In this document: in pieces, positions 36,712 through 52,799 of the stretch
How the letters are laid out: the number at the start of each line of letters is the position of its first letter
Numbering within the stretch: position 1 is the stretch's first letter
Assembly (NCBI GenBank): GCA_048270185.1
Contig: JBLWTJ010000002.1
Coordinates: forward strand, 192,001 to 256,000
Source of the DNA: Bacteriovoracaceae bacterium
Lineage (GTDB): Bacteria > Bdellovibrionota > Bacteriovoracia > Bacteriovoracales > Bacteriovoracaceae
Direction: 5' to 3'
Length of the DNA: 64,000 bases
Translations under genes and position numbers: made by a program
The notes under the pieces: generated by a model
Databases searched by the model: none
What the model was told of the DNA's origin: nothing
The model's input: the letters and a program-made list of their open reading frames with translations, nothing else

Positions 36712-36876
36712 CTAAAGACTCTGCCAAAGCTCTTTTAGCCTATCAATACTGGCTTCTCCATCTTCTAAGAGCTCTTCTTTGGAAAAAGGAAGCTCGTCAT
36801 CACTAGAGAGAAAAACGATGATTTGTTTCAAACGCTCTGCTTCATTTATGAGGTCATGTCTTAATTTACTATCCAT
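36712..36876 (-). CDS. Small 54-aa protein with HisKA-like H-box
   Basis: ATG 36876 begins 7 nt after the regulator stop; LRHDLIN followed by two predicted helices. Confidence 0.55.
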   Translation of the reverse strand: MDSKLRHDLINEAERLKQIIVFLSSDDELPFSKEELLEDGEASIDRLKELWQSL

Positions 36877-36883
36877 TTTTGAC

Positions 36884-38245
36884 TCACTGTAAGAAACTTG
36901 AGCTTTTTGCATCAGATTGAATTCGATAAAGTAGTGACTTTGATAATTGTAGCTCACGGGCCACTTTATTTATCTTGCCATCACATTCATTAAGAGTTGA
37001 TTCATAGACTTTTGTTTCGATTAATTTGATCAGACTTTGCAGGCCATTATTTCGCGCAAACTCAATCATCTCTTCAGTAACAAAGTTTAAATTATTATCA
37101 ATTTTCGACTCATTATTCTCATTGTTTAAGATATAACGAGGTAAATCAGATAGAGTAATTAAACCTTTCTTTCCAGCACTAATAGTTAGGACAAGATTCT
37201 CTAGCTCACGAATATTTCCTGGCCAGTCGTATTTATTTAAAATCTCTTCGACTTCATCATCAAGAATAATTTTCTTTGATGAGTTCGATAGGAAGTGATC
37301 AAACAATAAAGTTATATCTTCTCTTCTCTCTTTTAGGGATTTAATCTTTAATTCAAAACCATTTATTCTAAAGAAAAAGTCTAAGCGAAATTTTTCTTCT
37401 TTAATAAGTTTTTGAAGATCATCACATGTAGCTGTGATTAAACGAAAGTCACTTGTTTCAACTTCAGTTGAACCAACTTTACTGAATGACTTCTCTTCAA
37501 TGGCCTTAAGAAGCTTCTTTTGGATATGGACAGGTATCGTTCCAATTTCATCTAAGAATAAAGTTCCACCATTAGCACGAGAGAGAAGTCCCTCTTTATC
37601 ACTTGAGGCTCCTGTAAAGGCACCTTTGACGTGACCGAATAATTCACTTTCAATTAGGTTCTCTGATAGTTCAGATAAATTAACGTGGACAAAATTTCCA
37701 GCGTCACTCGATAACTCATGTAATGCTTTAGCGATTTTTGTCTTACCAACACCAGTTGGCCCAGTAATTAAAATTTTATGCTCGCGAGGTCTTGGAAGAT
37801 CTCGAAGGTAAGAGATTTTAGAAATAAGCTCTTCATCGTTAGTAATATACTTAGTTGCAAAGAATGAGCGAAACTCATCTTCATCCATCGAGTTAAGAAT
37901 ACCACCAACGTGCTCTTTTAAGTTCTCTAAGAAGTCCTGCTTTACAAAATAATGATCACATCCTGCTTTATAAGCAGCTTTGATAATATCTTTAGAATCA
38001 TTACCTGAGAGTGCGATAGATGTAATATTCTTTTCATTGGCCTTTTTGATAACTTCAATCCCTTCAAGCCTTTCATTTTCAGATAAATCAAGATCAGAAA
38101 ATACGAAGGAAATATTTTGAGTCTTCAACATATGTAAGGCCACTTGAAGGTTTTGGGCCTCAACAATTTGCCCATATTCTTGTAATTGGCTTACAAGATT
38201 AAATCTAAAATACTTATCATCTTCGACTACTAATATCTTCTTCAT
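36884..38245 (-). CDS. Sigma-54-dependent response regulator (NtrC family enhancer-binding protein)
   Basis: REC (VVEDD, FSDL), GPTGVGKT, ESELFGHVKGAFTGA, LFLDEIG, WPGNIREL, Fis-type HTH. Confidence 0.95.
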   Translation of the reverse strand: MKKILVVEDDKYFRFNLVSQLQEYGQIVEAQNLQVALHMLKTQNISFVFSDLDLSENERLEGIEVIKKANEKNITSIALSGNDSKDIIKAAYKAGCDHYFVKQDFLENLKEHVGGILNSMDEDEFRSFFATKYITNDEELISKISYLRDLPRPREHKILITGPTGVGKTKIAKALHELSSDAGNFVHVNLSELSENLIESELFGHVKGAFTGASSDKEGLLSRANGGTLFLDEIGTIPVHIQKKLLKAIEEKSFSKVGSTEVETSDFRLITATCDDLQKLIKEEKFRLDFFFRINGFELKIKSLKERREDITLLFDHFLSNSSKKIILDDEVEEILNKYDWPGNIRELENLVLTISAGKKGLITLSDLPRYILNNENNESKIDNNLNFVTEEMIEFARNNGLQSLIKLIETKVYESTLNECDGKINKVARELQLSKSLLYRIQSDAKSSSFLQ

Positions 38246-38268
38246 AATGGTCCTCTTTAGACCATTAT
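38244..38268. promoter_or_regulatory. Perfect inverted repeat covering RBS and start of the NtrC-like gene
   Basis: ATAATGGTC-CTCTTTA-GACCATTAT. Confidence 0.55.
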
Positions 38269-38330
38269 TATCTAATTAATACATAAAATTAAAGGCTTAT
38301 GTAAAAAGTATCGGTATTTTATTTAATAGA

Positions 38331-38347
38331 CAGTCGAAAAAAGACTG
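38331..38347. promoter_or_regulatory. GTC-N7-GAC palindrome upstream of NtrC-like gene
   Basis: CAGTC-GAAAAAA-GACTG. Confidence 0.45.
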
Positions 38348-38367
38348 CTTAAATACCCTAAATTACA

Positions 38368-38742
38368 CTAAATACTGAGTTTTCTACACTTAAGCTTTAA
38401 GAGGGCCTTTTCAAATTCAATCTGAGTCGCAAAAATTTTAAAGTAGTCATGGCCAAAGGTATTGTGAAGGGCCTCTCTTATCGACTCATCTGAATTCGTT
38501 AATACTTTTTGAGTAATCATACCCTTTTTGAAGTCATCAAAGGTTGCATCCTGATTCTCAACTTCTTTTTGAATCTCTTCAAATAACTCTTGTACGCCTT
38601 TAGTATATTTTTTAGTTTTACAAGTATTTGTCTGTGTATCATTTCCTGTCGCGATGGTATCCGATGAGCCACTTGTGCTTGTTCCACCACCACATGATAT
38701 AAGAGTAGAAAATAAAATTATTATTGCTAAAATATTCCTCAT
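38368..38742 (-). CDS. Hypothetical lipoprotein
   Basis: Lipobox LISC, G/S/T linker. Confidence 0.7.
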   Translation of the reverse strand: MRNILAIIILFSTLISCGGGTSTSGSSDTIATGNDTQTNTCKTKKYTKGVQELFEEIQKEVENQDATFDDFKKGMITQKVLTNSDESIREALHNTFGHDYFKIFATQIEFEKALLKLKCRKLSI

Positions 38743-38753
38743 AATTCCCTCAA

Positions 38754-39503
38754 TTATTCGAATTTAAAATTCTTTGTTATATTTCTATTCTCTTCCATTA
38801 TATATGTTTGAAACTCATCAAATCCAATATAGTCCATAAGAGTTGGTCGTGTTTCATCACCTATAATTTTAATCTCTTTATTGATATTAAGATATAGAGA
38901 TCGATCTTGATATGTATTTGTTAGATTGACTTCTTTTACTTTTGGAAAGAATTGTAAAAATCTAAAATCGGCAATATCAGTGTCAGAGAGGTCAAGGCTT
39001 CTCTTTCTTTTTATCTTTCGATAAACAGAGTAACATGAAGAGCGATCATAGCTTTTCCCTAGAGCAGCAAGAGCATGCTTTTCAAATTCATTGAGATTAG
39101 ACATTCTACAATAATCAAGAAAATTTGCTTCACGACATTTTAAGTTGGTTGTATCAACAGCTAGATTTTTAACAATAATAACTTGTCCTCGGCGTGTATA
39201 ATTTGCAGTCGATTCTTCAAAGAATGATTTTTCAAAATCTCTCTTTTCCCACTCCCCTGCAATATATGTATCATTGATGACAGTATTAACACTTCCGATA
39301 TCTGTATAAGTTTCGTAATCCTCAAGTTCAGCACTAATCTTGACTCCAGAGCAAACAAGCGCCTTAGCTGTTTTATTTTCTATTGTAAGAATGACCTTAT
39401 TATTTTCTTCTCCTGTTTTCAGGTTGAAGTTCACCCCATCCAAATCAGAAGCATTTGTATTTACGAATAAAATAAATAAAAGAATTGTTACTAAGTTTTT
39501 CAT
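38754..39503 (-). CDS. Secreted protein with short leucine-rich-repeat-like C-terminus
   Basis: Signal peptide from MKNLV; SLDLSDTDIADFRFLQFFPKVKEVNLTNT. Confidence 0.6.
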   Translation of the reverse strand: MKNLVTILLFILFVNTNASDLDGVNFNLKTGEENNKVILTIENKTAKALVCSGVKISAELEDYETYTDIGSVNTVINDTYIAGEWEKRDFEKSFFEESTANYTRRGQVIIVKNLAVDTTNLKCREANFLDYCRMSNLNEFEKHALAALGKSYDRSSCYSVYRKIKRKRSLDLSDTDIADFRFLQFFPKVKEVNLTNTYQDRSLYLNINKEIKIIGDETRPTLMDYIGFDEFQTYIMEENRNITKNFKFE

Positions 39504-39504
39504 A

Positions 39505-39924
39505 TTATCTCTCACACTTAATTGAATTTAACACCTTAAAAGGTTTGCTCATTATTGAGCGATACTCGATTTTTTCAAGAAGGTTATTTGAATCAAAGTT
39601 AATTACCAAACTATCAGTTTTCCTTAAACTCTGTTTTCCAGAAGTCTTCTTGAGAAGTAAATTTGTTACAACTTCATGATCAGCTTGACCAAGAGTCATA
39701 CTTAATCCAGCACTATTTCCTCTAATACGATCAACAATTGTCAACCATACACTATTATTAATATCACCAATATGATCAATATAAATGTCACAATTATAAA
39801 GTTTTATTCTTCCTCTATATTCTGACAAGAAGTGATCAAGGACCTGTTTGTTACCTGAAGAAAAGCTCCATTCACTAGCGTTAGTATTCATCATAACAAA
39901 CAGTAACAACAAAAAAGTTTTCAT
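39505..39924 (-). CDS. Secreted hypothetical protein
   Basis: Signal peptide TNA; ATGA overlap with upstream gene. Confidence 0.7.
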   Translation of the reverse strand: MKTFLLLLFVMMNTNASEWSFSSGNKQVLDHFLSEYRGRIKLYNCDIYIDHIGDINNSVWLTIVDRIRGNSAGLSMTLGQADHEVVTNLLLKKTSGKQSLRKTDSLVINFDSNNLLEKIEYRSIMSKPFKVLNSIKCER

Positions 39925-40565
39925 CGATCATCCCTTTCAAAAATTAATTCCAATTCTGGACGATAAACTTCAATCCCTAAATTAATCATCGAATTCCCAT
40001 GGCATAGGTCTAGGTCTTTTAAGTTCTTAATAGGACAGTTTGAAACAATTAATAATTCAAGTCTATCCTGCATACATAGTTGCCAGTTTGAAATCAGACT
40101 TAGAACTCTTCCTTCTTCAACAATTAGCGGTCTAACATTTTCTAGTGCAAGATTAATTTCATCACCAATTTTAAGGGCATAAAAGCTATTCTTATCAATT
40201 GATTCAACCGGAAGCTCAATCAGAATATTTTTTTCTAATACACCACGATATGAAAGTTCCACTTGCTCTTTCAAATAAAGACTCAAGTACTGGTCATAAG
40301 CGATTGAAAAATCATCTATCCCACCTAGATTATTTGCATATGTAAACTCTTTAACTTGTGAAACAATTCTCTTAGCTTGTTTTTGTCTATGAGATATTGC
40401 TTCGCAAGAAATAAACTTATCAGCAGATATAACATGACCAACATTATTGCTAATACTTCTTCTTGCATGCTTTAAGACATAGAGAAGGTTTTCATCAACA
40501 ATATTGGCCATACCAGATGTCATGCTAAATATAGTAAATAAAGAAATTACAATCGCTTTCAACAT
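39921..40565 (-). CDS. Secreted hypothetical protein
   Basis: Signal peptide GMA; GAGG RBS; 4 Cys. Confidence 0.7.
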   Translation of the reverse strand: MLKAIVISLFTIFSMTSGMANIVDENLLYVLKHARRSISNNVGHVISADKFISCEAISHRQKQAKRIVSQVKEFTYANNLGGIDDFSIAYDQYLSLYLKEQVELSYRGVLEKNILIELPVESIDKNSFYALKIGDEINLALENVRPLIVEEGRVLSLISNWQLCMQDRLELLIVSNCPIKNLKDLDLCHGNSMINLGIEVYRPELELIFERDDR

Positions 40566-40570
40566 GACCT

Positions 40571-42151
40571 CTATTCTTCAATAACAAAAGTTGCAGTACC
40601 GTAATGAGAGTATGCTCTCGTCTCTTTTACTTCTTCAGTACTTTTATAATTAAACTTTCTTAGAAACTCACTTGTTTGTGTTGCACTTCCAAATAATGAA
40701 TTCGAAAGATCAAGCGCCATTGCAGCATACTTACAGTAAACAGATGGACAGTCTTTACTCTTAAGCATATCTGAGCCTACAGACGCCCCGTTTCTTCTTG
40801 CTTCAGGAAGAGTGATTGCAGGGTTAGAACGAACATATCCTGTAGAGATTTCTTCAATAGTCTTAGCAACAAAGTCATTCATTATTTTACTCTTTTCTTC
40901 TTTCGAAAAATTATCTCTTGGGTCTTCTGAGTAGAAATGTACTTCTAAATTACCAGCAATATTTGTCGTCTCTGATATTGAGTTAATTGACTTTGTCTTA
41001 AATAAGCCACCTTTTGTCGTATGCTTCTTTACTTTCTTATAAATCTCACTCTTGTTATAAATAAGTCTGTAGTTATTATTAACAGCAAGGTTATACTTAT
41101 ACATTGAGTTAACATTGAAAACAGCAGTTAAATCTTTGTTAGCTTTTTCACCTTTTAGTAGCATGCAAGATGATAGTGCTGAAATATTAACACTACCACT
41201 TAAAGACTCACCGAAAACAATACTTCTAAATCCTGGCGTAACCTCATTGTCTTGATCCATAATTCCTGGAATACTAATATCTTTTTCAATTTCAGAAACT
41301 AGACCACCGATATCGTTAACAGCAAACTGAATCGAGTTATCAACAGGCATTCTCTGAAGATTAATTCCTCTATTATAACGCTTGAATTCATTAAGAAGTT
41401 CATAATGTTTATTTTCAAGTATAACTTTTACTGTCCCACCATTACGTGATCTCATATCAGCGAGGTCAGCATTCATTTTTTTAAGTAATACTGAAATTAC
41501 ATCAAGAGTATTTGATTCACGTGTCGTTAGTTCTTCAACTTGCATTTTAGTTGCGACTAATTGCTCATTTAAGCTTGTTTCCGCTTCAAAGAGACCTTCA
41601 AGTTTTGCATTAACCTGTGCCATCGAACTTTCAATTTTCACAAGTGTATTTTCTAATTGCATTATATTGTAACGATTTAGATCCTCATTCTTTTTCAAAG
41701 CTACAATTTGAGTTTCAACTAGAACTTTCTTACCCTGAAGATCTATTTTCTTCTCTAGCAACTTAATACGAGACACAGTGTATTTCTGTAGACTTGTATT
41801 CGTACGAACAAGAGTTTGCATTAAAAGCTTTAATTGTCTTTTCTCATAAACAGAAAGCTCTGCACTATCTTGAATTTGATCAATCTCTTTACTGTATTGA
41901 TCTAACAATAAGTAAACACCTTCACACTCTGCTTCCGTTACGAGAGAATTGAATGCATCCACTCTCACAGTATTTGTTTTTGGGGGAAGAACATAGGCAG
42001 TCTTACAAGACTGATCCCAAAAATACCCCGTCGATCCTTTTGGTTCACGTATCTTTTGTGAATCACACTTCGTATACTTATTTGGAATATTGGCCAATAC
42101 TGGAGCAGATATTAAAAATGCTGCCACTGCCATCTTTTTACTAAAATTCAT
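40571..42151 (-). CDS. Secreted hypothetical protein with long coiled coil (paralog of 43187..44617)
   Basis: Signal peptide; DQSCKTAYVLPP; heptad-rich middle; GESLSG; KGGLFKTKS. Confidence 0.8.
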   Translation of the reverse strand: MNFSKKMAVAAFLISAPVLANIPNKYTKCDSQKIREPKGSTGYFWDQSCKTAYVLPPKTNTVRVDAFNSLVTEAECEGVYLLLDQYSKEIDQIQDSAELSVYEKRQLKLLMQTLVRTNTSLQKYTVSRIKLLEKKIDLQGKKVLVETQIVALKKNEDLNRYNIMQLENTLVKIESSMAQVNAKLEGLFEAETSLNEQLVATKMQVEELTTRESNTLDVISVLLKKMNADLADMRSRNGGTVKVILENKHYELLNEFKRYNRGINLQRMPVDNSIQFAVNDIGGLVSEIEKDISIPGIMDQDNEVTPGFRSIVFGESLSGSVNISALSSCMLLKGEKANKDLTAVFNVNSMYKYNLAVNNNYRLIYNKSEIYKKVKKHTTKGGLFKTKSINSISETTNIAGNLEVHFYSEDPRDNFSKEEKSKIMNDFVAKTIEEISTGYVRSNPAITLPEARRNGASVGSDMLKSKDCPSVYCKYAAMALDLSNSLFGSATQTSEFLRKFNYKSTEEVKETRAYSHYGTATFVIEE

Positions 42152-43187
42152 AACTCACCTCTCCTATTTCAACTTTATTTATAATTGTTTTAAATTTGAT
42201 TCCCATTCCAGGAGTAACTTTTTTATCTGAGTACTTTCTAACTACTGATTCGATAAAACTTGGAGTTAAATCATTGAATCCAAATTTTCCATTCTGCTCA
42301 AAAAAGCTCCTATAGAAATCGAGTCTTCCTTTCTCTCCAAAACGATTAAGTATATCTCCTTTGAATAGAGCTCTTTCGCCTTTCATCATTTCAGCAGTTT
42401 TAAAGCCTGCCTCAAACATATTTTTTGGAGATGTTAGTTCATTTAGTTTCTTAAGTTTATTTCCATAAGACTCAACATCTTCAGACTTAATCCAATCTGT
42501 AACAACTGTTTGACTAAAGTGCTTCCCGCTAACATTGAATGCTAACTCAACATCTTTTTCAGCAATGTCACAGGCTAATTCAAAAAGAGAAGTATCAAAT
42601 TGAACTTTTCCTATTTTTAAATCATCAGCAGTTCTTGCATAAAAGTAATCTTCATCAAATCTCTTAAGATATACATTTAAGTAACTCTCAGGAAATAATT
42701 TCAGAATCGCACTATTCTTCACTTCAACATCAAAGAAAGATTCATTAAAACTAACCTGATTATTAATCCTCGAAAGAACAGATTCCGGATTAACGTTTAC
42801 ACTTAAAGCAAGTCTCTTCAAGAACCCGACAGAAGCGAAGCGTTCTCCATATGGATAAATAACCACTTTATTCTTTCCTAGTTCATAAGAGTTTGTTTCT
42901 CCAGAAAGAGTAAAAGGTTCTAAAATCTCACGACGAATTTGTGCAAATTCTTTCGCATCCATTTTAGATACATCTCTAAATCTTAGCTCCTTCTTATAAA
43001 GACCTTTAATTTTTCGACATAACTTCTTTTCTAGTGTAATGCTATCAACTACAATTTTCGATTCATACTCATTAGCAAACTCTAGATTTAAATTATTATT
43101 ATGATCTTTTTTAAATTCATAACCATCGACACTGATCACATTGGCAATTGCCGCTAGGTTCAGAAGAGTTAATAAAAGTGCTCTCAT
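42141..43187 (-). CDS. Secreted hypothetical protein
   Basis: Signal peptide AIA; overlaps both neighbours. Confidence 0.75.
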   Translation of the reverse strand: MRALLLTLLNLAAIANVISVDGYEFKKDHNNNLNLEFANEYESKIVVDSITLEKKLCRKIKGLYKKELRFRDVSKMDAKEFAQIRREILEPFTLSGETNSYELGKNKVVIYPYGERFASVGFLKRLALSVNVNPESVLSRINNQVSFNESFFDVEVKNSAILKLFPESYLNVYLKRFDEDYFYARTADDLKIGKVQFDTSLFELACDIAEKDVELAFNVSGKHFSQTVVTDWIKSEDVESYGNKLKKLNELTSPKNMFEAGFKTAEMMKGERALFKGDILNRFGEKGRLDFYRSFFEQNGKFGFNDLTPSFIESVVRKYSDKKVTPGMGIKFKTIINKVEIGEVSYEF

Positions 43188-44617
43188 TATTTACTCTCCT
43201 TTACAAATCCCATCGTTGTAATTCTAAGAACAGTTTTAATAAGCTCTGATTTCTCATTATATGAGTAAGCAAAATTCTTCGCACTTGTTTGAATTAACTC
43301 CCCTCTACCTTCGACTGCAACTTTCACAGTATAGCTTTGGTCCCAACACTTACGACTTTTTCTAAAAAAACTTCTCTTTGTACGACAAATTCTCTGAGTT
43401 CTCGTTTGCTTAATATGTGGATCATTTGGAATATCAAGATCTTTAATAATAAGCTTACTATCTGTTGGTGTGGCAATTGTTGAGATTAGCTTTAAAACGA
43501 TATCATCTAGAATTAAGCCTTTTAAATCTTGAATCTCTTCGTATAGTTCACCCGACGTTCCTGCTGAATCTTCATCCTGGATCGTAATATCAATTGACTG
43601 ATCTAAATTTGAACTTTCAAAAAGATCAACAACTTCTGAAACCTTAAATGTATTCTTTGTTTTAGTTAGTTTATTTAATTCATTTATTACTTTATCGACT
43701 TTTACTTTTACCGAGTACTTCTTACTCAACTCTACTGGATACCATATTGTTGAGTTAGCAACCAAGTAAGTTGATAAATTTGAATTAAGCGCCTCTCTCT
43801 TAGCGCTATCTAATGTAAACGCTTCACCATTTTTCTTCTTTAGAATATTTACGATAGGACACACACCAGACATATTAAGTTGAATAAATCCTGTTAAACT
43901 CTCTCCCATTGCAAAAGTGTTCTCACTTTCAGCTGCAGCATAACCAATTCTTTCAGAAATATTTTCAAGACTTGAAAGCTTTACTCCTGGTACATTAAAA
44001 GAATGAAGAGCACCTGTACTACTAAGTCCAATTAAGTCATCTTCTGACTTTAGTCTCACACTTAGAGCATTTGCAACAAGAGGCATCTTCTTAATTGTAA
44101 GCCCTCGGCCAGTGTTTGCTTCACGGTATGCATTTACTAGTTCAGTCCACTCGTGTTCAAAGTGTGCCTTACCTTCAAAGATAACCATCTTAGAAAATTG
44201 ATCCTTCTCCATCTTTGCTTGAGGCAAGGCCTTATTTATATAAGTAAGAATATTCATTTCAGAATCAGTTAGAGTTGCAATACGAGATTCTAAATCACGT
44301 TGTGTTTCAACAAGATTCTTCACGCGATTAAGTGATGTCGTATAAGAAGAACATAAGTTACTTTCTGCAAGAATATTATATGAGTCAAAACGAGCAATCC
44401 CATTTCTTGGAGGTAAGACAAATACTGTCTTACATGACTTATCTGTTAAGTAATCAGAAGAGTGAGATGCCACTGCTCCACCTGCACCAGGTTTTACAAT
44501 TGCCAGATTACATTCTTCAGTATTTCCCTCATAAGGAAAGTTTGCAAAACCAAATTGCCCAATAACTAAAGAACTTAGAAGCAGGCCTTTCTTTAAAAAT
44601 TCATAATAAGTATTCAT
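43187..44617 (-). CDS. Secreted hypothetical protein (paralog of 40571..42151)
   Basis: Signal peptide GFA; DKSCKTVFVLPP; GESLTG; GGGAG RBS. Confidence 0.8.
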   Translation of the reverse strand: MNTYYEFLKKGLLLSSLVIGQFGFANFPYEGNTEECNLAIVKPGAGGAVASHSSDYLTDKSCKTVFVLPPRNGIARFDSYNILAESNLCSSYTTSLNRVKNLVETQRDLESRIATLTDSEMNILTYINKALPQAKMEKDQFSKMVIFEGKAHFEHEWTELVNAYREANTGRGLTIKKMPLVANALSVRLKSEDDLIGLSSTGALHSFNVPGVKLSSLENISERIGYAAAESENTFAMGESLTGFIQLNMSGVCPIVNILKKKNGEAFTLDSAKREALNSNLSTYLVANSTIWYPVELSKKYSVKVKVDKVINELNKLTKTKNTFKVSEVVDLFESSNLDQSIDITIQDEDSAGTSGELYEEIQDLKGLILDDIVLKLISTIATPTDSKLIIKDLDIPNDPHIKQTRTQRICRTKRSFFRKSRKCWDQSYTVKVAVEGRGELIQTSAKNFAYSYNEKSELIKTVLRITTMGFVKESK

Positions 44618-44668
44618 ATTTATCTCCCTAGCAATTATTTGCTCTCATTTATTTAGTGACTTGTTAAA

Positions 44669-44685
44669 AGCAGGGAGTGTGCCAA
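44669..44685 (-). promoter_or_regulatory. Sigma-54 (-24/-12) promoter for leftward operon
   Basis: Minus strand TTGGCAC-ACTCC-CTGCT: GG-N10-GC spacing exact, ~50 nt above ATG 44617. Confidence 0.75.
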
Positions 44686-44734
44686 TTTTTTAATTAGTTA
44701 AATGATTGAAACTATGTAAGTTTGAATCTCAAGC

Positions 44735-44786: not shown

Positions 44787-44820
44787 TTATGTAATTTTAA
44801 TAGTTTAGAACATTTCTTTC

Positions 44821-44837
44821 TTGGCACTCAGATTGAA
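44821..44837 (+). promoter_or_regulatory. Sigma-54 (-24/-12) promoter variant for rightward operon
   Basis: TTGGCAC-TCAGA-TTGAA: perfect -24, TTGA instead of TTGC at -12; ~40 nt above ATG 44879. Confidence 0.6.
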
Positions 44838-44878
44838 TAGATAAGCTTACTAATTATGATTAATTCGAGGAGAAAGAT

Positions 44879-45757
44879 ATGAAGACTAAATTTATGAGTA
44901 TATTATTGGCCACAAGTTGCCTCTTAGTACTAGGCCAAGTTCATGCTATAACTTTCACAAAAACTGAGGCTAGAAAAGTTTGTAAAGAGATAAGAGATAG
45001 CCAGATCAGTCAGACATCACAGTGTAATTCTGATGTAAATACTAACTACAATATCATTGAAGAACTTACTAAAAGCTACCTTCATGGCCTTGACCTTTTA
45101 GATGAACGACAAAAAGAGGCCCTCCAATACCTAGAGTATAACTCACAGGCCCAAGGTGAATATCTTGAATTATCAAAGTCGAAAATTGAACTAACGGATC
45201 AGTTAAAAGGCCTTGAGGAAAATATTCAATCAACTTTTGAGTACTATAACAAGTTGATTGAAGGTATTTCACCAAACTTCTCTAATCGCTATGCCACAGA
45301 ACTTCTACAACAATATTCAAAAGAGAAGAAAACAAGAGTAAGCCGCCTAGAGAGCGAAAGAGAATCTCTAAGTTCTCGCCTTACTTCAATTAGAGAAAGG
45401 CTTGCACAACTTAATATTGAACTTGCTCCATATCGTGAAATTATCAATCAATACAACTTACAGATAAGTGAAATAAAGTCACAAACTCAGCAAATTCTAA
45501 AAAGACTTGAAGAAAATAAACAAACAAATAGGAGTCATGATACGACAGGATTCATTGGAAGATCCCTATTTGACTTTGGCCATGGAGATGACTTTGATAT
45601 GCAAGCATGTATAAGTTTGCATATGTCTCTTAACAAGTTACCTGAGTTTGATTTACCACGTCTGCCTAATATACCAAGAGGCCCTTGGGGAACAGATGGA
45701 CCTGGCATCAATAACCCTTATGTGAAATCTTTACAAAAAGAATCATATTCTAGGTAG
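44879..45757 (+). CDS. Secreted coiled-coil protein with Pro/Gly-rich tail
   Basis: GAGGAG RBS; signal peptide VHA; long heptad region; Cys at both ends. Confidence 0.75.
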   Translation: MKTKFMSILLATSCLLVLGQVHAITFTKTEARKVCKEIRDSQISQTSQCNSDVNTNYNIIEELTKSYLHGLDLLDERQKEALQYLEYNSQAQGEYLELSKSKIELTDQLKGLEENIQSTFEYYNKLIEGISPNFSNRYATELLQQYSKEKKTRVSRLESERESLSSRLTSIRERLAQLNIELAPYREIINQYNLQISEIKSQTQQILKRLEENKQTNRSHDTTGFIGRSLFDFGHGDDFDMQACISLHMSLNKLPEFDLPRLPNIPRGPWGTDGPGINNPYVKSLQKESYSR

Positions 45758-45836
45758 TTAGAGATGACGTGAGAAAAAAGAAATTCAAACGATTATTAAT
45801 TTATGATAACAATAATTAAAATTTAATGAGGGATAT

Positions 45837-46247
45837 ATGAAAGATAAAACAATTATCGGACTAGCAATTCTAACAGCAACTTTTGGAGCTCATGCGCAAG
45901 ATGCTGATACACAGAATAAAGATGATAAGTCTAAAGACTTAAAACAAATCTATACCCAACAAGAAGACTTAACAGTTGATGAAGAAGTCGAAATTAAAAT
46001 TCTCGAGCACCTTGAAGAGCAAGGTATCTTAATTGAAGACCTTACAATCCAAGAGATTGAAGAACTTCAGATCCTAATGAAGAAAATTGTACTTAGAGAT
46101 CGCTTGCTAATAAATTCAAGTATTCGTTGTATGATAAGCCCAGATGCTGCAAGCACTAATATTAGATGTCTTAGTGCAGAAAGAAAACTCGAAGAGAAAT
46201 TAAAAGAGCAGCTAAATCAAATCAATCAAAGCTTTAACCGCCGCTAA
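45837..46247 (+). CDS. Putative RiPP precursor with Sec signal peptide, acidic leader and two IRC repeats
   Basis: GAGG RBS; AHA signal cleavage; EDLTIQEIEEL; NSSIRCMIS and STNIRCLS; immediately upstream of YcaO. Confidence 0.65.
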   Translation: MKDKTIIGLAILTATFGAHAQDADTQNKDDKSKDLKQIYTQQEDLTVDEEVEIKILEHLEEQGILIEDLTIQEIEELQILMKKIVLRDRLLINSSIRCMISPDAASTNIRCLSAERKLEEKLKEQLNQINQSFNRR

Positions 46248-46256
46248 TTAGTATTA

Positions 46257-47426
46257 ATGAAAATATTAAATCAAAGAGAGTCTCTTGATGGCCTTGTCGA
46301 CAGATTTGCAATCCAAGGCCAGGCTCTTTCTGATGATACAATTCTCAATATAAAAGAATTCCTAAATAACAATACCGATAGACTTACAATTGAAAGAGTT
46401 ATTTCGGATTTAATACCTCACGACTACTATCTGACACGAACATCATGTTACTATCATGGTACACAAATAAATGGTTTTTCACTCTCACATAAAGAAGAGC
46501 CTCACAAATCACTGCTTGAAGCCTATGAGAGGTACTTATTTTTAAACTTAGCTCTACTTGCAGATATTAATAATGAATCAAACAATGCATCTTCATACCT
46601 AAAATTGCTTAATGTTGAATCGATGGATCTCTCAAAGACGAATGTCATCAATTTAAACTCGCTAGAGGAAGTTAGTCTTGAACGCTATTTACTTGGTCTT
46701 CAATCAAATTTCTCATCCTTTACTTCAAATGGATGTGCAGTACATACATCAGTACTAAACTCAACCAAGGCATCGATCTTCGAATTATTAGAAAACCATA
46801 TCATTCAAGAGCATATCATGCTTGATATAGCACCAGTTGAAGTCCATGTAGACGAGCTTATCCCCACTTCAATTTCAGCGAAACTTAATGAGCATGGATT
46901 TGAGATAAAGACCCTTTGCTTTACAAATGGCCAATGGCCTACTTTTTTAACGTTCATTCTTAATAAAGACTTAACAGGTCCCTATCTATTCTACGGCATT
47001 GGCTGCCATGAAGATTTAGATCAAGGTTTACAAAAATCAATTAGAGAAGCTTTCATGTGTTGGTGTATCGAGCTTCCTCAGATTAGCGCATTAGATGAAG
47101 TCGACTTAGGACACGATATCTCTAAGTCATCAAAATTCTATCATTATCAAAATAGTGAAGTCATGCAAAAGGCATGGTTTGGTATGCCTATTAAAAGTAT
47201 TGAAGAGATTAAACTTCAATACCCAACCCAAAAGTTAGCGGCCGTTATTAAAGAAATGGACTTTTTAATTCTGCCAATTCTGGCCCAAGGAGAAAAAGGA
47301 CAAACCATTGTTTTTACAAAGGTTTTTTCTTGTAAAAATCACCCAAAATCCTACTCAACTCCCCCCTATCTACGAATTCATGATACATTAAATAATATTG
47401 ATAAATTAAAAAATTACCCTTTCTAA
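46257..47426 (+). CDS. YcaO-family cyclodehydratase (standalone, divergent)
   Basis: LEAYERY, FTSNGCAVH...SIFELLENH, YGIGCH.....QKSIREA; C-terminal YPF. Confidence 0.8.
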   Translation: MKILNQRESLDGLVDRFAIQGQALSDDTILNIKEFLNNNTDRLTIERVISDLIPHDYYLTRTSCYYHGTQINGFSLSHKEEPHKSLLEAYERYLFLNLALLADINNESNNASSYLKLLNVESMDLSKTNVINLNSLEEVSLERYLLGLQSNFSSFTSNGCAVHTSVLNSTKASIFELLENHIIQEHIMLDIAPVEVHVDELIPTSISAKLNEHGFEIKTLCFTNGQWPTFLTFILNKDLTGPYLFYGIGCHEDLDQGLQKSIREAFMCWCIELPQISALDEVDLGHDISKSSKFYHYQNSEVMQKAWFGMPIKSIEEIKLQYPTQKLAAVIKEMDFLILPILAQGEKGQTIVFTKVFSCKNHPKSYSTPPYLRIHDTLNNIDKLKNYPF

Positions 47427-48272
47427 GTGAGAGATATGAAAGTTGGAAGTATATTAAAGTATAGCAACACAGAGCTATCCTTAGTTGAAAAATTACCTTC
47501 TGGTTTAAATAAGCTAGTATGGTCTAAGGACACTCAGCTACTGATCTTTGACCAAGAAGACAATTATCTTCTACTGAATCCAAGAGAAGTTTCTGGTATG
47601 AGACTTTTTATTGAAGGTCAAAAAACGACACTAATTAAACTATTAAAAGACCAAACTCTTTGCTATCTCATTCAAGGTATTGCTAAAAGCTTCCAATGTC
47701 GATTTATACAAATCCAATCAGAGCAGCTTGATTTAAAAGATCACCTTGATAATGGCTTCTACTTTTCAAATATTATATTAAAAAAAGATTTATCTAAACC
47801 AATCGAAGAAATCAGTTCATCACTAATTGAGAGAAAACTCGATAAAAAATATCAAAATGAGTATGCTTTAAATGAATTTATGACGAGAGTGTCAATTCCA
47901 GGTGGAACACATTACAAGGATGATTTCTACACACTGATTAAGGCAGAGTATAAGGAACTAATCGAACTCGATATCGATGGACTAGACTTTATTGAGTATT
48001 CTTTAAAGGAATATGGCCATGATACATATTATATATGGATGATTAACCACCATACCAAAACTGCTCTACGATGTTTTTCATGGGTGGCACCAAAACTTAG
48101 AGGACAAAGTATATCGAGTCGTGCAAATGAAGAAATCAATAAGAGCTTATATGCTAAAGGCGTTAAGCAATGTCTATCATTTACATCTTTCACAAATATA
48201 GCACAGGTAAGAAGTAGTTTAAAAGCTGGCTACAAGTTAGACCGAATTGTTATTTTAAAAGAGGTTAACTAA
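47427..48272 (+). CDS. GNAT-domain acyltransferase
   Basis: C-terminal WVAPKLRGQSIS (motif A) and NIAQVRSSLKAGY (motif B). Confidence 0.7.
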   Translation: MRDMKVGSILKYSNTELSLVEKLPSGLNKLVWSKDTQLLIFDQEDNYLLLNPREVSGMRLFIEGQKTTLIKLLKDQTLCYLIQGIAKSFQCRFIQIQSEQLDLKDHLDNGFYFSNIILKKDLSKPIEEISSSLIERKLDKKYQNEYALNEFMTRVSIPGGTHYKDDFYTLIKAEYKELIELDIDGLDFIEYSLKEYGHDTYYIWMINHHTKTALRCFSWVAPKLRGQSISSRANEEINKSLYAKGVKQCLSFTSFTNIAQVRSSLKAGYKLDRIVILKEVN

Positions 48273-49660
48273 TGAGTCGTTTAATTCTATCAACTTTACT
48301 CATTCTTATTTCAATTAATACTCTTTCTAAAGATATCTACTTAAAAAGTGATATTAAAATTACCGGATTTGACCCAGCAACCCTAAAGTATGCAGAGGAA
48401 TGGGAGTTATCCCCAACTGTATATGAGACACTAATTAAACCAATTGCCTCAGAAGGTTTCCTTAGGCCTTCTCTTGCTGAAAGTTGGAAATACAAGAGCG
48501 GAACACTAAAGTTCAACCTTAGAAAAGAAACAAGATTTTCTAACGGTGACCCAATCAATGCCAAGGCAGTTAAAGAGTCATTCCTACGTTACTTACTACT
48601 TGATAAGAACAAGGAATCTATTCTTTACAATTGTTTAAAAGAGGCAAAGAATATTAAATCAATCACTGAATCTCATCCTTCTATTACGATTCAATCGGAA
48701 TATAATATTTCTTTTAAAATTAAAGAAGACTGTAAGGATACTTTTCTAAAAGAGATCGCTCAACCGATATACGGTATTGTCTACACAAAGAACTTAAAAA
48801 AGGACCTTTCATTAACTACTCCTTCGATTGTATCAGGAGCTTTTAACTATAAATTAAATAACGATGATCTTATCCTGTATCGTAACAGCAATAACTGGGC
48901 ATGGTTTGAGAATAAATCCAAATTACAAAAGATTATTGTCTCAAAGAATAGAAGTAAGAATACGAATGTTTTAAGAACAGGCTCTATTGAAGTATTCAAT
49001 GAACTGCAAGAGTCAAATCAAGATTTCATTCTTAGTCTTCCAAATATCACTTGGTATCTAACATACGAATGTAAGAACGATTGTGACCTAAAGAAATCAA
49101 TAATAGATGAACTAAAATATAATCTACCAAAAATCATTAAAGAAAAGAGCTATTCAAATGTTTTCAATACACCAGCAGATTCTTTCTTTCCAGCAAGTTT
49201 TAACTGCCCATCAAAAGAGGTTAAAAAGGTTGCTATAAAGAAAAAGGGAATATGTCTTAAACTTGACTACGGATCGAGAAGAACAAATGAAGCTGTCATG
49301 GGATTCACTGATAAAGCATTAAATGATCTCGGTTATAAAACTAATAACTGTGAGAATCCAAAGGTTTTCAAAATATACCCACAATTTCTCCATGATGAGA
49401 TTATACCAACATTAGATTTCTTGGCCAATACAGTCATGTCAATCAACAATATTGTAGAGATCAACAAGTATCTTCCAAATCAAAACAATAAAGTTACCTA
49501 CAATCGAGGAAGGCTATGCACAGAGTTCAGTAAGTTAAACTTTACTCCACTCTATCACTCACGCATTGCTTTTTTCTATTCAGATAAACCACTAAAGAAA
49601 ATATTCTTTAAAAGCGGTGGATATATTAGTTTAATTGATCTGCCATTTGTTGAGTTTTAA
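48272..49660 (+). CDS. Orphan family-5 (OppA/DppA-like) solute-binding protein
   Basis: Signal peptide; DPA, VYETLI, PSLAESW, FNLRK..FSNGDPINAKAVKESF. Confidence 0.8.
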   Translation: MSRLILSTLLILISINTLSKDIYLKSDIKITGFDPATLKYAEEWELSPTVYETLIKPIASEGFLRPSLAESWKYKSGTLKFNLRKETRFSNGDPINAKAVKESFLRYLLLDKNKESILYNCLKEAKNIKSITESHPSITIQSEYNISFKIKEDCKDTFLKEIAQPIYGIVYTKNLKKDLSLTTPSIVSGAFNYKLNNDDLILYRNSNNWAWFENKSKLQKIIVSKNRSKNTNVLRTGSIEVFNELQESNQDFILSLPNITWYLTYECKNDCDLKKSIIDELKYNLPKIIKEKSYSNVFNTPADSFFPASFNCPSKEVKKVAIKKKGICLKLDYGSRRTNEAVMGFTDKALNDLGYKTNNCENPKVFKIYPQFLHDEIIPTLDFLANTVMSINNIVEINKYLPNQNNKVTYNRGRLCTEFSKLNFTPLYHSRIAFFYSDKPLKKIFFKSGGYISLIDLPFVEF

Positions 49661-49661
49661 T

Positions 49662-50684
49662 ATGAAGATTACCGAGAATGATTATTTTTTAGCAAAGAAG
49701 TATAAGAAGCAAGATAGCTTCTATATAAGCCTATCTCGTAAACGCCCTACTTTAGCTGGTGCATTTATTGAAATGCTAGAAGTTCTTTCACAGAACTTAA
49801 TTAATAAAGAGTGTGATTTTCTACTAATCGACAACGACGATCAGATTCTTTTAAAGGATTTACAAAATATTGGATTCAACACTTATGGTTACTTAGCAGA
49901 TGATAAATTAATCTCACTAAGTGACATTAACCTTATTGCACATACAAAAAAGATACAGAATATTGTTCTAGTTGTCGGAAGTAAGATTAAGCATCCTTCA
50001 ATTGAGAACTCAAAAGAGTTTATTTCATTTATTAGAAACAGAGAGCGTTATTTAACAAATCTTACAGAATTAAATCCAAATATTTATAAGGATACAGAGA
50101 ATTTAAAATCTTTTAACCTACAAGATAATGATAAATTAAGAGTTGATAATAGCTTCTCATCTCTATCAATGAAAAGAACCTCGGCAAATGGATTTAACTC
50201 GCCACTAGAAAGTAGTGAAATCATCCAGCTTCTTAACGACAGTCTTTCATATACTCAAAGTAATTCCATAAAAAGACCAATTGCTTGTGCAGGAGGACTT
50301 GGAAATTTCAAGGCCTATATAACAAATGGTGATAATAATGTCGAAATCTACACTCCAGAAGACTTAAACATCAAGCAAACGAATATCGAATGGAATAATC
50401 TTTTAATGGACCAGATAGCAAGTAATCTTGAGACCTTTAATGGATGTAAAACTTGGCTAATTCTAAGTGTGGACCTAGTTCAATTAAGGAGTAAATATGG
50501 AGCAAGAGCTTATCGATTTGCTCTAATGGAAACAGGCGGACTTCTCCATCAACTACATCTATCGGCTACTTCATATGGATTTGACTTTCGTATTCTAGGC
50601 GGTTTTGACGACAAGGTAGTAGAAACTTTACTACACATAGGTAATGAAGAAGTTGTCACAGCAATATGTGGACTAGGAAAGTAA
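49662..50684 (+). CDS. SagB/McbC-type FMN-dependent azoline dehydrogenase (nitroreductase fold)
   Basis: RPIACAGGL; SKYGARAYRFALMETG...LSATSYG...ILGGFDD; ATG 49662 one base after upstream stop. Confidence 0.85.
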   Translation: MKITENDYFLAKKYKKQDSFYISLSRKRPTLAGAFIEMLEVLSQNLINKECDFLLIDNDDQILLKDLQNIGFNTYGYLADDKLISLSDINLIAHTKKIQNIVLVVGSKIKHPSIENSKEFISFIRNRERYLTNLTELNPNIYKDTENLKSFNLQDNDKLRVDNSFSSLSMKRTSANGFNSPLESSEIIQLLNDSLSYTQSNSIKRPIACAGGLGNFKAYITNGDNNVEIYTPEDLNIKQTNIEWNNLLMDQIASNLETFNGCKTWLILSVDLVQLRSKYGARAYRFALMETGGLLHQLHLSATSYGFDFRILGGFDDKVVETLLHIGNEEVVTAICGLGK

Positions 50685-50690
50685 CAACTA

Positions 50691-52799
50691 ATGAAAAGAA
50701 TTGATAAGATCTTCATCATTCTCTTTTGCTTTATTATCGTAGTGTTAGGATTCTACTCAAATTATGCCTATAGCTTAATTCAAGAAGAAGCAAAGCAAGT
50801 TGCCATCAAACAAATGATTGCTAATTCTAATGTTATAACTTCATCTATCCAAAATGATGTATTTTCAAGTAACTATATTAACGCCTGGTACTCAGCATCA
50901 CGTTCAATCAAAAACATAGATGGTGCTTACTTCATTCTAGCGGATATCGACGGTAACGACCTAGTCGATGATTTAGGCTCTCAACTCAAGTATAAGAAGC
51001 TTACAGAAAATAATAAATTTAAAAAAAAGGAAATTAACAAGTCTTCTTATTATTTAGTTTCAAATGACTTTAAAAACCTCATTGTAAAAGATCACTTTAT
51101 TAGTAACCTCGACGGGAAAAGTAATTATTCTATTTCATATGTCTATCCGCTCTCTTTCTTAGAAGCGAGTATATCAAAAATCTCATATATAAATTTAGCT
51201 TTAGCTGCAATATTAATTGGAATCATTGCTCTGTATTTTATAATTATTCGTAAGCTCTTTAATAATAGCTTCACTGCTCTTGGTAATGGAGTTGACCATA
51301 TTATTAAGGGGGAAGAAATCACTAATGCTGAAATCAACGAAGTACTTGAAGATCATTTCGAGGCGCGCACACTCCTTGATAATTTCAAGAAAGATTATGA
51401 TTTAACTAAGAGGAAGTTACAGGAAGAAGCAAAACTATCGGCCCTTTCTAAAATTGCAACACAAGTTGCCCATGATATTCGTTCCCCTCTATCTGTATTA
51501 GAAATGTCTATTTTTGAAGAGGAACAAGTTAGTAATAAGAATATAATCCAAAGTGCGATTCAAAGAATTAATGATATTGCCAATAATTTATTAAGTGAGA
51601 ACAGGACTAATACTAAAGGTCAGGAAGAGATCTATCTTCCATATGTTATTGATTCGATTATTACCGAAAAACGCTACCAATATTCAAAATATCATCAACT
51701 AGAAATTAGATTTGTTAACAATTGTGACAATCTTAACCTGTTTACAAGGTTTAACGATATCGAGCTAAAGCGAATTCTTTCAAACCTTATTAATAACTCG
51801 GTCGAGAGCTTCGCAAACAGACAAGGTATTATTGAAATTATCCTCACTGACTCTCAGAATGATATCTTCTTAGAGATTAAGGACAATGGTCACGGTATTG
51901 AAGAAGACATCCTAGATCAACTACGCAAGAATCCATTTAGTCACAAGAAAGAAGGTGGAAATGGAATAGGCCTTTCTCATGCGATGCAAACAGCTCAGAA
52001 GTATCAAGCCAGTTTAGCACTAGACTCGCAAGTAGGACATGGAACAACAATTCGCCTAACACTTAAGAGAACTTCAGCACCAAGGTGGTTTAGCTCTTCA
52101 ATTAACCTTTCCAAATTTGATAATATAATTGTCTTAGATGACGACTACTCGATTCATGAGCTTTGGAATAAACGTTTATCAGGCCTTAAGAGAGATTATC
52201 ATATTATCAATTTAAATGACCCATTAGAGCTATCAGCAACTCTTTCTAAACTTGATATTAGTAAGACTTTCATTATATGTGATTACGAATTTGTACATGA
52301 GTCGCTAGACGGTATTGATACCATTATTGAAAATGATATCTCTAAGAACTCTATTCTTATTACAAGTCACTTCAATGAAGACGACCTTCAAGAAAGATGT
52401 CTTAAGAACTCAATAAAGATGGCACCTAAAAATTTAGCGAGATTAATTGAGCTACATGAATTTGGTAATATGAGTAAGGGAAAACAGGTCGTCTATCTTG
52501 ATGATGATCGCCTTTTAACTCATGCCTGGAAAACGAAAGCAACTAAGAATGGTGTGGATTTACTCACTTTCAATAATGTGAATGACCTACTTCAATCAGC
52601 AAGTGAGATCGATCAACAGGCGACCTTCTATATTGACTATAGTCTAGGTGAGAATGAATTAAGTGGAGATAAAGTAATTGAGAAGTTACAATCTCTAGGC
52701 TTTACTAAATTTTATTTGGCATCTGGTTACACTAGGGACTACTTTGACGAACTTGGAATTAATATCGAAGTCGTAGGTAAAGAAGCCCCTTGGGTATAA
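50691..52799 (+). CDS. Hybrid sensor histidine kinase with periplasmic domain and two C-terminal receiver-like domains
   Basis: Two TMs; QVAHDIRSPL; NLINNS, DNGHG, GNGIGL; IVLDDD and VYLDDD modules. Confidence 0.9.
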   Translation: MKRIDKIFIILFCFIIVVLGFYSNYAYSLIQEEAKQVAIKQMIANSNVITSSIQNDVFSSNYINAWYSASRSIKNIDGAYFILADIDGNDLVDDLGSQLKYKKLTENNKFKKKEINKSSYYLVSNDFKNLIVKDHFISNLDGKSNYSISYVYPLSFLEASISKISYINLALAAILIGIIALYFIIIRKLFNNSFTALGNGVDHIIKGEEITNAEINEVLEDHFEARTLLDNFKKDYDLTKRKLQEEAKLSALSKIATQVAHDIRSPLSVLEMSIFEEEQVSNKNIIQSAIQRINDIANNLLSENRTNTKGQEEIYLPYVIDSIITEKRYQYSKYHQLEIRFVNNCDNLNLFTRFNDIELKRILSNLINNSVESFANRQGIIEIILTDSQNDIFLEIKDNGHGIEEDILDQLRKNPFSHKKEGGNGIGLSHAMQTAQKYQASLALDSQVGHGTTIRLTLKRTSAPRWFSSSINLSKFDNIIVLDDDYSIHELWNKRLSGLKRDYHIINLNDPLELSATLSKLDISKTFIICDYEFVHESLDGIDTIIENDISKNSILITSHFNEDDLQERCLKNSIKMAPKNLARLIELHEFGNMSKGKQVVYLDDDRLLTHAWKTKATKNGVDLLTFNNVNDLLQSASEIDQQATFYIDYSLGENELSGDKVIEKLQSLGFTKFYLASGYTRDYFDELGINIEVVGKEAPWV

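Follow-up and report, generated by a model that had tools for sequence, protein, structure and literature searches.

The window analysed here is a 64,000-nucleotide stretch of a Bacteriovoracaceae genome (assembly GCA_048270185.1, contig JBLWTJ010000002.1, positions 192,001 to 256,000 of the forward strand), and its central element is an island of about 16.1 kb in which a stand-alone YcaO enzyme, an orphan periplasmic family-5 solute-binding protein (SBP5), a hybrid sensor histidine kinase and a sigma-54 activator are encoded together with seven exported proteins. The favoured interpretation, held at a probability of roughly one half, is that the island forms a self-contained circuit. A Sec-exported, YcaO-modified peptide would be perceived by the SBP5 and the kinase and relayed to the activator, which would drive both operons of the island. 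As far as profile matches assign the genes, a simpler SBP5-YcaO-kinase module is recurrent across genera and families of the phylum.

Positions 36712-52799 are laid out as two divergent, tightly packed gene sets. The genes and motifs that would make up the circuit, leaving aside the exported proteins of the minus strand, are the following:

36712..36876, minus strand: small acidic open reading frame (ORF) of 54 aa (ATG at 36876), directly after the activator gene, with an invariant K..H-D motif
36884..38245, minus strand: response regulator and sigma-54 enhancer-binding protein with a REC domain, an AAA+ domain carrying GAFTGA, an AAA-lid and a C-terminal helix-turn-helix-like tail
44669..44684, minus strand: canonical -24/-12 motif TGGCACactccCTGCT, 52 bp upstream of the gene for a 476-aa exported protein
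44822..44837, plus strand: near-consensus -24/-12 motif TGGCACtcagaTTGAA (GG-N10-GA), 42 bp upstream of the 292-aa ORF
44879..45757, plus strand: uncharacterised exported coiled-coil protein of 292 aa with a signal-peptide-like N-terminus; no counterpart was found elsewhere
45837..46247, plus strand: 136-aa ORF with a Sec-type signal peptide, an acidic helical region and two I-R-C motifs; candidate YcaO substrate and signal precursor
46257..47426, plus strand: stand-alone YcaO of 389 aa with an apparently intact ATP/Mg site
47427..48272, plus strand: 281-aa protein with a probable C-terminal GNAT acetyltransferase fold
48272..49660, plus strand: orphan periplasmic SBP5
49635..50684, plus strand: SagB/McbC-type FMN dehydrogenase-like protein
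50691..52799, plus strand: hybrid sensor histidine kinase with HisKA, HATPase_c and two receiver-like C-terminal domains

Recurrent gene order provides the principal argument for a functional unit. With the island YcaO alone as query, nothing convincing was found in 60 relatives, and one other genome gave a match at E 9.4e-4. The synteny emerged through a search with a 526-aa exported protein of the minus strand and then through profile A4, which comprises the island YcaO and its mini-YcaO relatives. This profile matched 120 of 400 other genomes of the phylum and 82 of 204 genera, the window's own included, often several times per genome (up to five); long YcaOs of the housekeeping type account for a few of these matches. 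The 40 best distinct neighbourhoods were fetched, and 38 contained a YcaO ORF, each matching Pfam YcaO at E<=0.01 and 34 scoring above the curated cutoff. Among these best-scoring loci, 20 of 38 have SBP5, YcaO and kinase in strict order, directly adjacent on one strand, and in three more the place of the SBP is taken by an unrecognised ORF of about 490-499 aa. Seven of the 38 include a full-length REC-sigma54 activator. About seven loci differ in that the kinase and a response regulator are transcribed divergently. As a control, the triad was absent from all 12 YcaO loci examined in another phylum (fused YcaOs of Saccharibacteria).

Individual loci extend this pattern. L071, from another family, encodes a 101-aa ORF, a 404-aa YcaO, a 302-aa protein like the island's 281-aa product, a 493-aa SBP, a 387-aa SagB and a 738-aa kinase, which is the order of the window, in a single genome. 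L032, from another genus of the same family, joins the exported-protein cassette to an activator, a small acidic H-D ORF, a 75-aa signal-peptide ORF, an SBP5, a YcaO (313 aa; Pfam 32.3 bits) and a hybrid kinase. At L033 (G112:C5), an unusually dense sensor array of three SBP5, three kinases and a YcaO-like ORF flanks the cassette. The first-pass annotation had tied the island genes into one system, and they do occur together in other genomes, as the triad in the 20 loci and as the full five-gene order in L071. A second mini-YcaO context was also observed (L078, L079, L081, L093, L096, L101 and L108), with an uncharacterised ORF of about 180-250 aa upstream and no SBP5; close to the YcaO in all of these loci except L079 lie ORFs for a kinase, a receiver-type regulator or both, in several loci on the opposite strand.

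The island YcaO is a member of the YcaO superfamily (Pfam PF02624, 39.0 bits against a cutoff of 25.7). An AlphaFold model built from seven sequences reached a mean predicted local distance difference test (pLDDT) value of 71.5, and Foldseek returned McbD as the top, whole-length match (TM-score 0.58-0.62), with 41 matches at E<=0.001, those listed being YcaO entries. ExxER and ExxE(R) are the ATP/Mg2+-binding motifs of these enzymes. E88, E91, R92, E176 and E179 are invariant in seven relatives; across 41 relatives from the phylum, E88, R92, G159, E176, E179 and E264 are conserved in all 41 and E91 in 39. At position 180 the window protein has N, and 40 of the 41 have R. Most relatives end in a tail of the form HP(I/L/F/V)x, with P388 in 30 of 41. 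The catalytic residues are fully conserved. The protein is very divergent: HMMER against 1.84 billion representative proteins gave 13 matches, six of them convincing, and in a word-index protein search both the YcaO and the 281-aa protein matched only themselves. Pattern scans (A2) of genome and metagenome contigs for the context of YcaO relatives confirmed nothing, and a scan with the more distant A3 returned only the fused YcaOs of Saccharibacteria. The same genome carries a second, ordinary YcaO (731-aa frame, C1:1004841-1005836, locus L020; Pfam 228.7 bits), which is unrelated to the island.

Two further plus-strand genes encode putative tailoring enzymes. Pfam recognises the dehydrogenase-like protein as Nitroreductase (42.4 bits, above cutoff); its TIGR03605 (SagB) score of 52.8 bits is below the cutoff of 78.4, and in the PDB it matches a SagB-like protein (3eo7, E 3.4e-11) and McbC (E 7.8e-4). 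The 281-aa protein has no match in Pfam (even at E 10), NCBIfam or PDB sequences. Its ESM features lie at 0.96 to GNAT clusters, and all ten of its best family-bearing matches are GNAT. The only homologue found is the 302-aa ORF of L071 (28% identical), which scores 16.6 bits on Acetyltransf_1 (E 0.0096; cutoff 20.7), and a profile of the two sequences gave four PDB matches, all GNAT, at E 0.03-0.28. A single-sequence model was poor (pLDDT 43.7) and unfit for fold searching. The C-terminal third of the 281-aa protein is probably GNAT-like, and the protein's N-terminal half has no assigned domain. Of the three enzymes first annotated, the YcaO is confirmed by Pfam, the dehydrogenase is SagB/McbC-like with TIGR03605 below cutoff, and the GNAT assignment is the most tentative. 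SagB-like ORFs occur in only three of the 40 sampled loci: L071, L077 (beside the triad) and L103 (with no YcaO ORF in the set). Since the common form of the module lacks both SagB and GNAT, oxidised azole formation and acetylation would be accessory tailoring, and their earlier placement at the core of the chemistry is not supported. To judge from the sampled loci, the core chemistry goes no further than a single YcaO step on one conserved Cys.

That Cys lies in the candidate precursor. A small ORF whose start resembles a signal peptide ends within 60 bp (about 5-10 bp) of the SBP gene, or of YcaO in the five-gene form, in 14 of 38 loci, and ten of the 14 have a Cys in the last 12 residues. 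Alignment A9 of 11 small ORFs (the 136-aa ORF and those of ten other loci) shows C111 as the sole invariant residue past Met1, in the context G-(S/T)-(I/R)-C and with a helical L..L.E.G.L.E motif N-terminal to it. Such a small exported ORF would look like a one-site YcaO substrate. The precursor-like peptide proposed earlier persists as a conserved small ORF upstream, but one with a Sec signal and no Cys/Ser/Thr-rich core. The available text on bottromycin describes a partner-less YcaO that forms a single thiazoline (bioRxiv 10.1101/2020.05.04.076059), and that on bufferins describes precursors with Sec signals, belonging to the RiPPs (peptides that are made on ribosomes and altered after translation), that are modified before export (PMC11626156). 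An intergenic small-ORF scan of the island found no classical short, Cys/Ser/Thr-rich precursor. A 35-aa, five-Cys ORF at 44462-44569 (plus strand) is probably spurious, being antisense inside the 476-aa gene and upstream of the plus-strand promoter.

On the sensor side, the SBP5 (Pfam SBP_bac_5, 68.4 bits) stands without a transporter. Pfam and NCBIfam scans of the island proteins found no permease and no ABC ATPase, and neither occurs in the 40 sampled YcaO neighbourhoods. An OppA-like binding protein lacking permease and ATPase had been annotated here; its orphan status stands, whereas "OppA-like" is loose, as the best named matches are of the NikA type. The periplasmic-sensing hybrid kinase was recovered as first described, with HisKA and HATPase_c, two hydrophobic transmembrane segments around a periplasmic domain of about 140 residues, and receiver-like domains. 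These domains recur in 17 kinase ORFs of 16 sampled loci, and the kinase alignment across loci includes L042, whose C-terminus matches Pfam Response_reg. A transporter-less SBP5 encoded with a kinase of this kind is, by its predicted domains, the layout of a binding-protein-dependent sensor.

The activator matches Pfam Sigma54_activat (182.4 bits) and Response_reg (50.1 bits), and GAFTGA is present in its translation. Both facing -24/-12 motifs sit in one 261-bp spacer. On the two strands of the 3.35-Mb genome, a relaxed -24/-12 pattern occurs 58 times, and 17 of these matches are intergenic with the correct orientation; as computed from the genome-wide count, the chance of two facing matches in one spacer of this length is about 5e-6, which makes a coincidental pair very unlikely. 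A -24/-12 promoter had been proposed for each operon: the minus-strand motif is canonical, and the plus-strand motif is near-consensus. The latter is a TTGAA variant that is also intergenic at C1:185797 and occurs in L080. The genome contains rpoN (212 bits). With two facing putative sigma-54 promoters, a GAFTGA activator and rpoN, the predicted wiring is present. In L106, which belongs to the window's own genus, and in L087, sigma-54 motifs precede activator-precursor-SBP-YcaO-kinase operons, an arrangement that fits autoregulation. Repeats in the intergenic spacer yielded no convincing activator site, and sigma-70 and terminator scans of the island were uninformative. A third -24/-12-like match, a TTGAA variant at 30116-30131 (plus strand), lies inside a 634-aa ORF of the opposite strand and was taken as chance.

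The small ORF that follows the activator gene may complete the relay. Acidic K..H-D ORFs of 47-67 aa lie after or overlap the activator end in the window, at L032:12866-13060, L045:536-730 and L047:16048-16251, and probably at about 5067-5210 of L097. The window ORF has no Pfam match. As the kinase is a hybrid, this ORF is proposed as the missing histidine phosphotransfer step; it may encode a histidine phosphotransfer protein or a regulatory or anti-activator protein. In run X3, indels in the 36712-36876 ORF occur as compensating pairs (36710/36714 and 36753/36756).

The output would be the operon of exported proteins, which is encoded as follows:

43187..44617, minus strand: 476-aa exported protein, first gene of the cassette
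42141..43187, minus strand: uncharacterised 348-aa exported protein; other cassettes have an ORF of about 330-350 aa in the equal position
40571..42151, minus strand: 526-aa exported protein, the marker of the cassette and a distant paralogue of the 476-aa protein (BLASTP E 1e-8)
39921..40565, minus strand: uncharacterised 214-aa exported protein without family match
39505..39924, minus strand: uncharacterised 139-aa exported protein without family match
38754..39515, minus strand: uncharacterised 253-aa exported protein, probably leucine-rich-repeat-like, with phmmer matches to ORFs of L053 and L028
38368..38742, minus strand: uncharacterised 124-aa lipoprotein-like exported protein with an LISC lipobox; a lipoprotein of 113-155 aa occupies the equivalent position elsewhere

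All seven ORFs of the 38368-44617 interval have a signal-peptide-like or lipobox N-terminus; signal peptides throughout the window were judged by eye from the translations, with no predictor. The seven divergent exported proteins and the NtrC-type GAFTGA regulator of the first-pass annotation were found at or near the positions given there, and a 122-bp gap with a weak hairpin separates the regulator gene from the cassette. The 139-aa and 214-aa proteins match no family in Pfam, NCBIfam or PHROGs, and PHROGs gave nothing meaningful for the uncharacterised proteins; Pfam gave no lead on the function of the cassette, and the 526-aa protein had no usable ESM Atlas match. Of 400 other genomes of the phylum, 42 encode a homologue of the 526-aa protein, which covers 30 of 204 genera with the window's own included. 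All 42 loci were fetched (L028-L069). They share a conserved order of a 476-like protein, one of about 340 aa, sometimes one of about 320 aa, a 526-like protein and three or four smaller exported proteins, including a lipoprotein and a leucine-rich-repeat protein; the cassette-end proteins of L030 and L028 match Pfam LRR_4. Eight of the 42 loci have a strict sigma-54 motif immediately ahead of the first cassette gene, with 19 such motifs in total in their 747 kb; L034 probably has one too, and that of L032 has one mismatch. Next to the cassette, six of the 42 loci carry a full-length REC-sigma54 activator and three an SBP5. The seven-gene cassette is an independent, phylum-wide operon.

The island as a whole is an acquired one, inserted cleanly at 36685-52822 (16,138 bp) between katG and a peroxiredoxin gene. 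In genomes of the same genus, where the island is absent, the two genes are 136-155 bp (L005, L006) or 642 bp (L004) apart. GC content is 32-34% in the island and 35-40% in the flanks. Inspection of the junction sequences revealed no integrase, tRNA or target duplication, and the uncharacterised island proteins have no paralogue elsewhere in their own genome. Contigs of run X3, from a study separate from X1 and X2, reach across each of the junctions (records 10 and 14) and across the region of the divergent promoters (record 13), so the arrangement is no assembly artefact. Record 10 differs from window positions 36239-39682, at the activator end, by 139 letters in 3444, whereas the 7.6 kb at 43739-51330 show only eight differing letters; this uneven divergence suggests recombination or strain mosaicism inside the island.

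Taken together, the proposed mechanism would begin in the cytoplasm, where the partner-less YcaO would activate the backbone amide before the conserved Cys of the 136-aa precursor, most likely yielding a thiazoline. In this island, the SagB-type dehydrogenase could oxidise the ring to a thiazole, and the GNAT-like protein could modify the product further. The precursor's own Sec signal peptide would then carry it to the periplasm, where the peptide or a trimmed C-terminal fragment would be bound by the orphan SBP5. The loaded SBP5 would switch the periplasmic domain of the kinase, and phosphate would travel through the kinase's receiver-like domains to the activator's REC domain, with the small H-D protein as a possible intermediate. 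The activator would open both facing promoters, inducing the seven-gene cassette and, in positive feedback, the operon for precursor, enzymes and sensor. The signal could act between cells, within one periplasm or in a confined space. Because the precursor's Sec signal by itself leads to the periplasm, it fits periplasmic or confined-space sensing as well as cell-to-cell autoinduction.

Known systems resemble parts of this arrangement. In the LuxP-LuxQ-LuxU-LuxO pathway for autoinducer-2 in Vibrio, an orphan periplasmic binding protein and a hybrid kinase relay a self-made signal to a REC-sigma54 activator, with small RNAs as output. The island likewise combines an orphan binding protein, a hybrid kinase, a REC-sigma54 activator and a presumed signal synthase, and its activator scores 210.6 bits on the LuxO model, far below the cutoff of 800. 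It differs in that the binding protein is of family 5 rather than of the LuxP type, the presumed signal is a YcaO-modified ribosomal peptide instead of a furanosyl borate, the output is an exported-protein operon instead of small RNAs, and only the small H-D ORF, with no HPt-family protein detected in the island, stands in the place of LuxU. AioX-AioS-AioR also comprises a transporter-less binding protein, a kinase and a sigma-54 regulator that drives a neighbouring sigma-54 promoter, and it senses an external solute. The island shares this joint encoding, but its unit also incorporates a YcaO and a conserved small exported ORF. In agr, ComX/ComP and nisin NisRK, a ribosomal peptide is modified and exported, and a membrane kinase that detects it turns on the peptide's own operon. 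Those systems belong to monoderms; their kinases bind the peptide directly, and they have dedicated exporters, no SBP, and OmpR/LytTR regulators acting at sigma-70 promoters. Nisin and agr are closest for the idea of a self-made, modified peptide signal, and LuxPQ-LuxU-LuxO and AioXSR for the sensor; the agr/Com-like logic first suggested therefore gives way to a binding-protein, kinase and sigma-54 activator architecture.

Further parallels concern the binding protein and the chemistry. CBP of Vibrio cholerae, which we take to be a family-5 SBP, belongs to a system that differs from the island in several respects: CBP also serves a transporter and is not encoded adjacent to chiS, ChiS binds DNA, and the ligand is a chitin oligosaccharide. 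In the available part of the published account, periplasmic CBP allosterically controls the hybrid sensor kinase ChiS (PMC12704726). The structural model of the island YcaO is nearest to McbD and the dehydrogenase matches McbC, as in the microcin B17 synthetase McbBCD and related thiazole/oxazole-modified microcins. Compared with these, the island lacks an McbB/E1-like scaffold and export or immunity genes, is embedded in a two-component operon, and has a precursor with a Sec signal and only one or two target Cys. The bottromycin pathway differs in being an actinobacterial antibiotic route with many tailoring enzymes and no sensor genes; its YcaO is likewise partner-less and, in the portion of the source at hand, converts one Cys near the end of the core to a thiazoline (bioRxiv 10.1101/2020.05.04.076059). 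Bufferins, as far as the available text goes, have Cys converted to heterocycles before export and accumulate in the periplasm, as proposed here, but rely on an MNIO maturase with a DUF2063 partner, serve copper buffering and are regulated by an extracytoplasmic function (ECF) sigma factor, where the island has a YcaO (PMC11626156). For methanobactin, the accessible description gives MbnE as an OppA/AppA-like SBP encoded with a modified ribosomal peptide and with no cognate permease known, which works with a TonB-dependent importer in copper uptake instead of pairing with a kinase (PMC7558416). The literature search, in which subscription journals were thinly covered, found no paper in which a YcaO forms a unit with a binding protein and kinase, and the NCBIfam scan of the island gave no such description either. 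This agrees with the earlier statement that no described system with this architecture is known, and the module is apparently undescribed despite being common in related bacteria.

Several observations weigh against the proposed circuit. The 20 of 38 triads come from the best-scoring neighbourhoods and may thus overstate the share among all matches, and SBP, kinase and activator genes in the loci were assigned with small home-made hidden Markov models that were checked against Pfam in a subset only. The island proteins include no E1-like, Ocin-ThiF or RiPP recognition element (RRE) partner in Pfam and NCBIfam scans, which leaves substrate recognition unexplained. Equally placed signal-peptide ORFs without a C-terminal Cys occur in L074, L082, L100 and L109, the 75-aa ORF of L032 has none either, and 24 of 38 loci show no clear signal-peptide ORF under the crude ORF and signal-peptide rules used for the sampled loci. 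The putative precursors are long (54-171 aa) and not rich in Cys, Ser or Thr. To get out of a diderm cell, a peptide of this size exported by Sec would need further processing, and this weakens the version with a between-cell autoinducer. The nearest named relatives of the SBP5 bind nickel or metallophores and not plain peptides, and GA replaces GC at -12 of the plus-strand motif. Finally, 40 of 42 cassette loci have no YcaO nearby, a YcaO-like ORF standing beside the other two, so the cassette has no need of a YcaO sensor. The inclusion of the secreted-protein operon in the circuit is accordingly half sustained: sigma-54 motifs precede eight of the 42 cassettes, but the cassette is a unit of its own.

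Some of these points suit other explanations better. The product could be a periplasmic metallophore or protective peptide, with the SBP5 as its carrier in the manner of MbnE and the kinase reporting the loaded or unloaded state, so that the environment is sensed. Thiazolines can ligate metals, and the best named matches of the SBP5 are nickel and metallophore binders (NikA 50.7 bits and CntA 33.2 bits in NCBIfam, both far below cutoffs; NikA in the PDB). The available text on bufferins adds the precedent of Sec-signal RiPPs with Cys-derived heterocycles that are retained in the periplasm (PMC11626156), and that on MbnE a binding protein of the OppA type for a modified peptide whose onward import route is unknown (PMC7558416). 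This explanation is nevertheless improbable: the peptides have one conserved Cys each against four to six in bufferin precursors; no TonB receptor, metal pump or metal regulator is annotated in the island or the sampled loci; and several paralogous triads per genome, with up to five YcaO matches, fit many specific signals better than one metal. An external-cue sensor, for instance for prey-derived or cell-wall peptides, is similarly unlikely. Here the YcaO and the small ORF would tune or antagonise the sensor, or the YcaO would modify the SBP or another protein. LuxPQ, TorTS and AioXSR are binding-protein-dependent kinases for external ligands, protein-acting YcaOs are known from McrA thioamidation, and SBP5-kinase pairs without YcaO exist at L033, L067, L086 and L105; CBP-ChiS, from the accessible part of its description, adds a further kinase of this kind with an external ligand (PMC12704726). 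Against it, the YcaO catalytic residues are fully conserved, and the ordered SBP-YcaO-kinase arrangement with a conserved-Cys ORF upstream reads most simply as enzyme and substrate.

Lower still stands an antibacterial linear azole peptide directed at prey or competitors, with the SBP for immunity or re-uptake and the two-component system regulating production. We consider it very unlikely, in spite of the resemblance of the YcaO and SagB/McbC-like pair to the microcin B17 synthetase and of phazolicin, an azole peptide bound by family-5 YejA during uptake in the part of the report available (PMC10128002). No exporter, leader protease or immunity gene turned up in Pfam and NCBIfam scans of the island; with its one or two Cys, the core does not resemble known azole antibiotics; the common module form has no dehydrogenase; and the module occurs in multiple copies within genomes and is tightly coupled to a kinase. 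That the genes have no functional link at all, being neighbours by accident of island assembly with motifs by chance, is scarcely credible. The island is foreign DNA and the plus-strand motif is imperfect, yet the gene order recurs in other families and genera, two facing motifs lie within 261 bp against 58 matches genome-wide, and the plus-strand genes overlap or abut.

If the peptide-signalling circuit is correct, its scope may exceed one island. Tentatively, and with less assurance than for the island itself, the phylum could be proposed to hold a large undescribed family of peptide signals: Sec-exported small proteins, modified at a near-C-terminal Cys by a minimal, partner-less YcaO and each read by its own orphan SBP5 and hybrid kinase, frequently by way of a sigma-54 activator. 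One genome could have several such channels in parallel, and the window island would represent an elaborated, horizontally moved channel with a captured exported-protein operon as output. As the peptide alone reaches only the periplasm, the system could report confinement or self-crowding, for a predator perhaps its enclosure inside prey, rather than population density. Genome size, GC content and the marine origin of the runs are compatible with the predatory member of Bdellovibrionota guessed at first.

The known roles of YcaO enzymes lie in antibiotics, cofactors and the thioamidation of proteins; as integral components of two-component sensors they are not known. The proposed circuit, if true, would introduce a new chemical class of bacterial peptide signal together with a new receptor type, composed of a family-5 SBP, a hybrid kinase and a sigma-54 activator, and would imply that RiPPs exported through Sec are able to act as signals. 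The module further offers a way into a conserved operon that encodes seven or eight uncharacterised exported proteins. Roughly one in three of the phylum's sampled genomes carries the YcaO module, frequently more than once, so that it would constitute a major unexplored regulatory layer in these bacteria.

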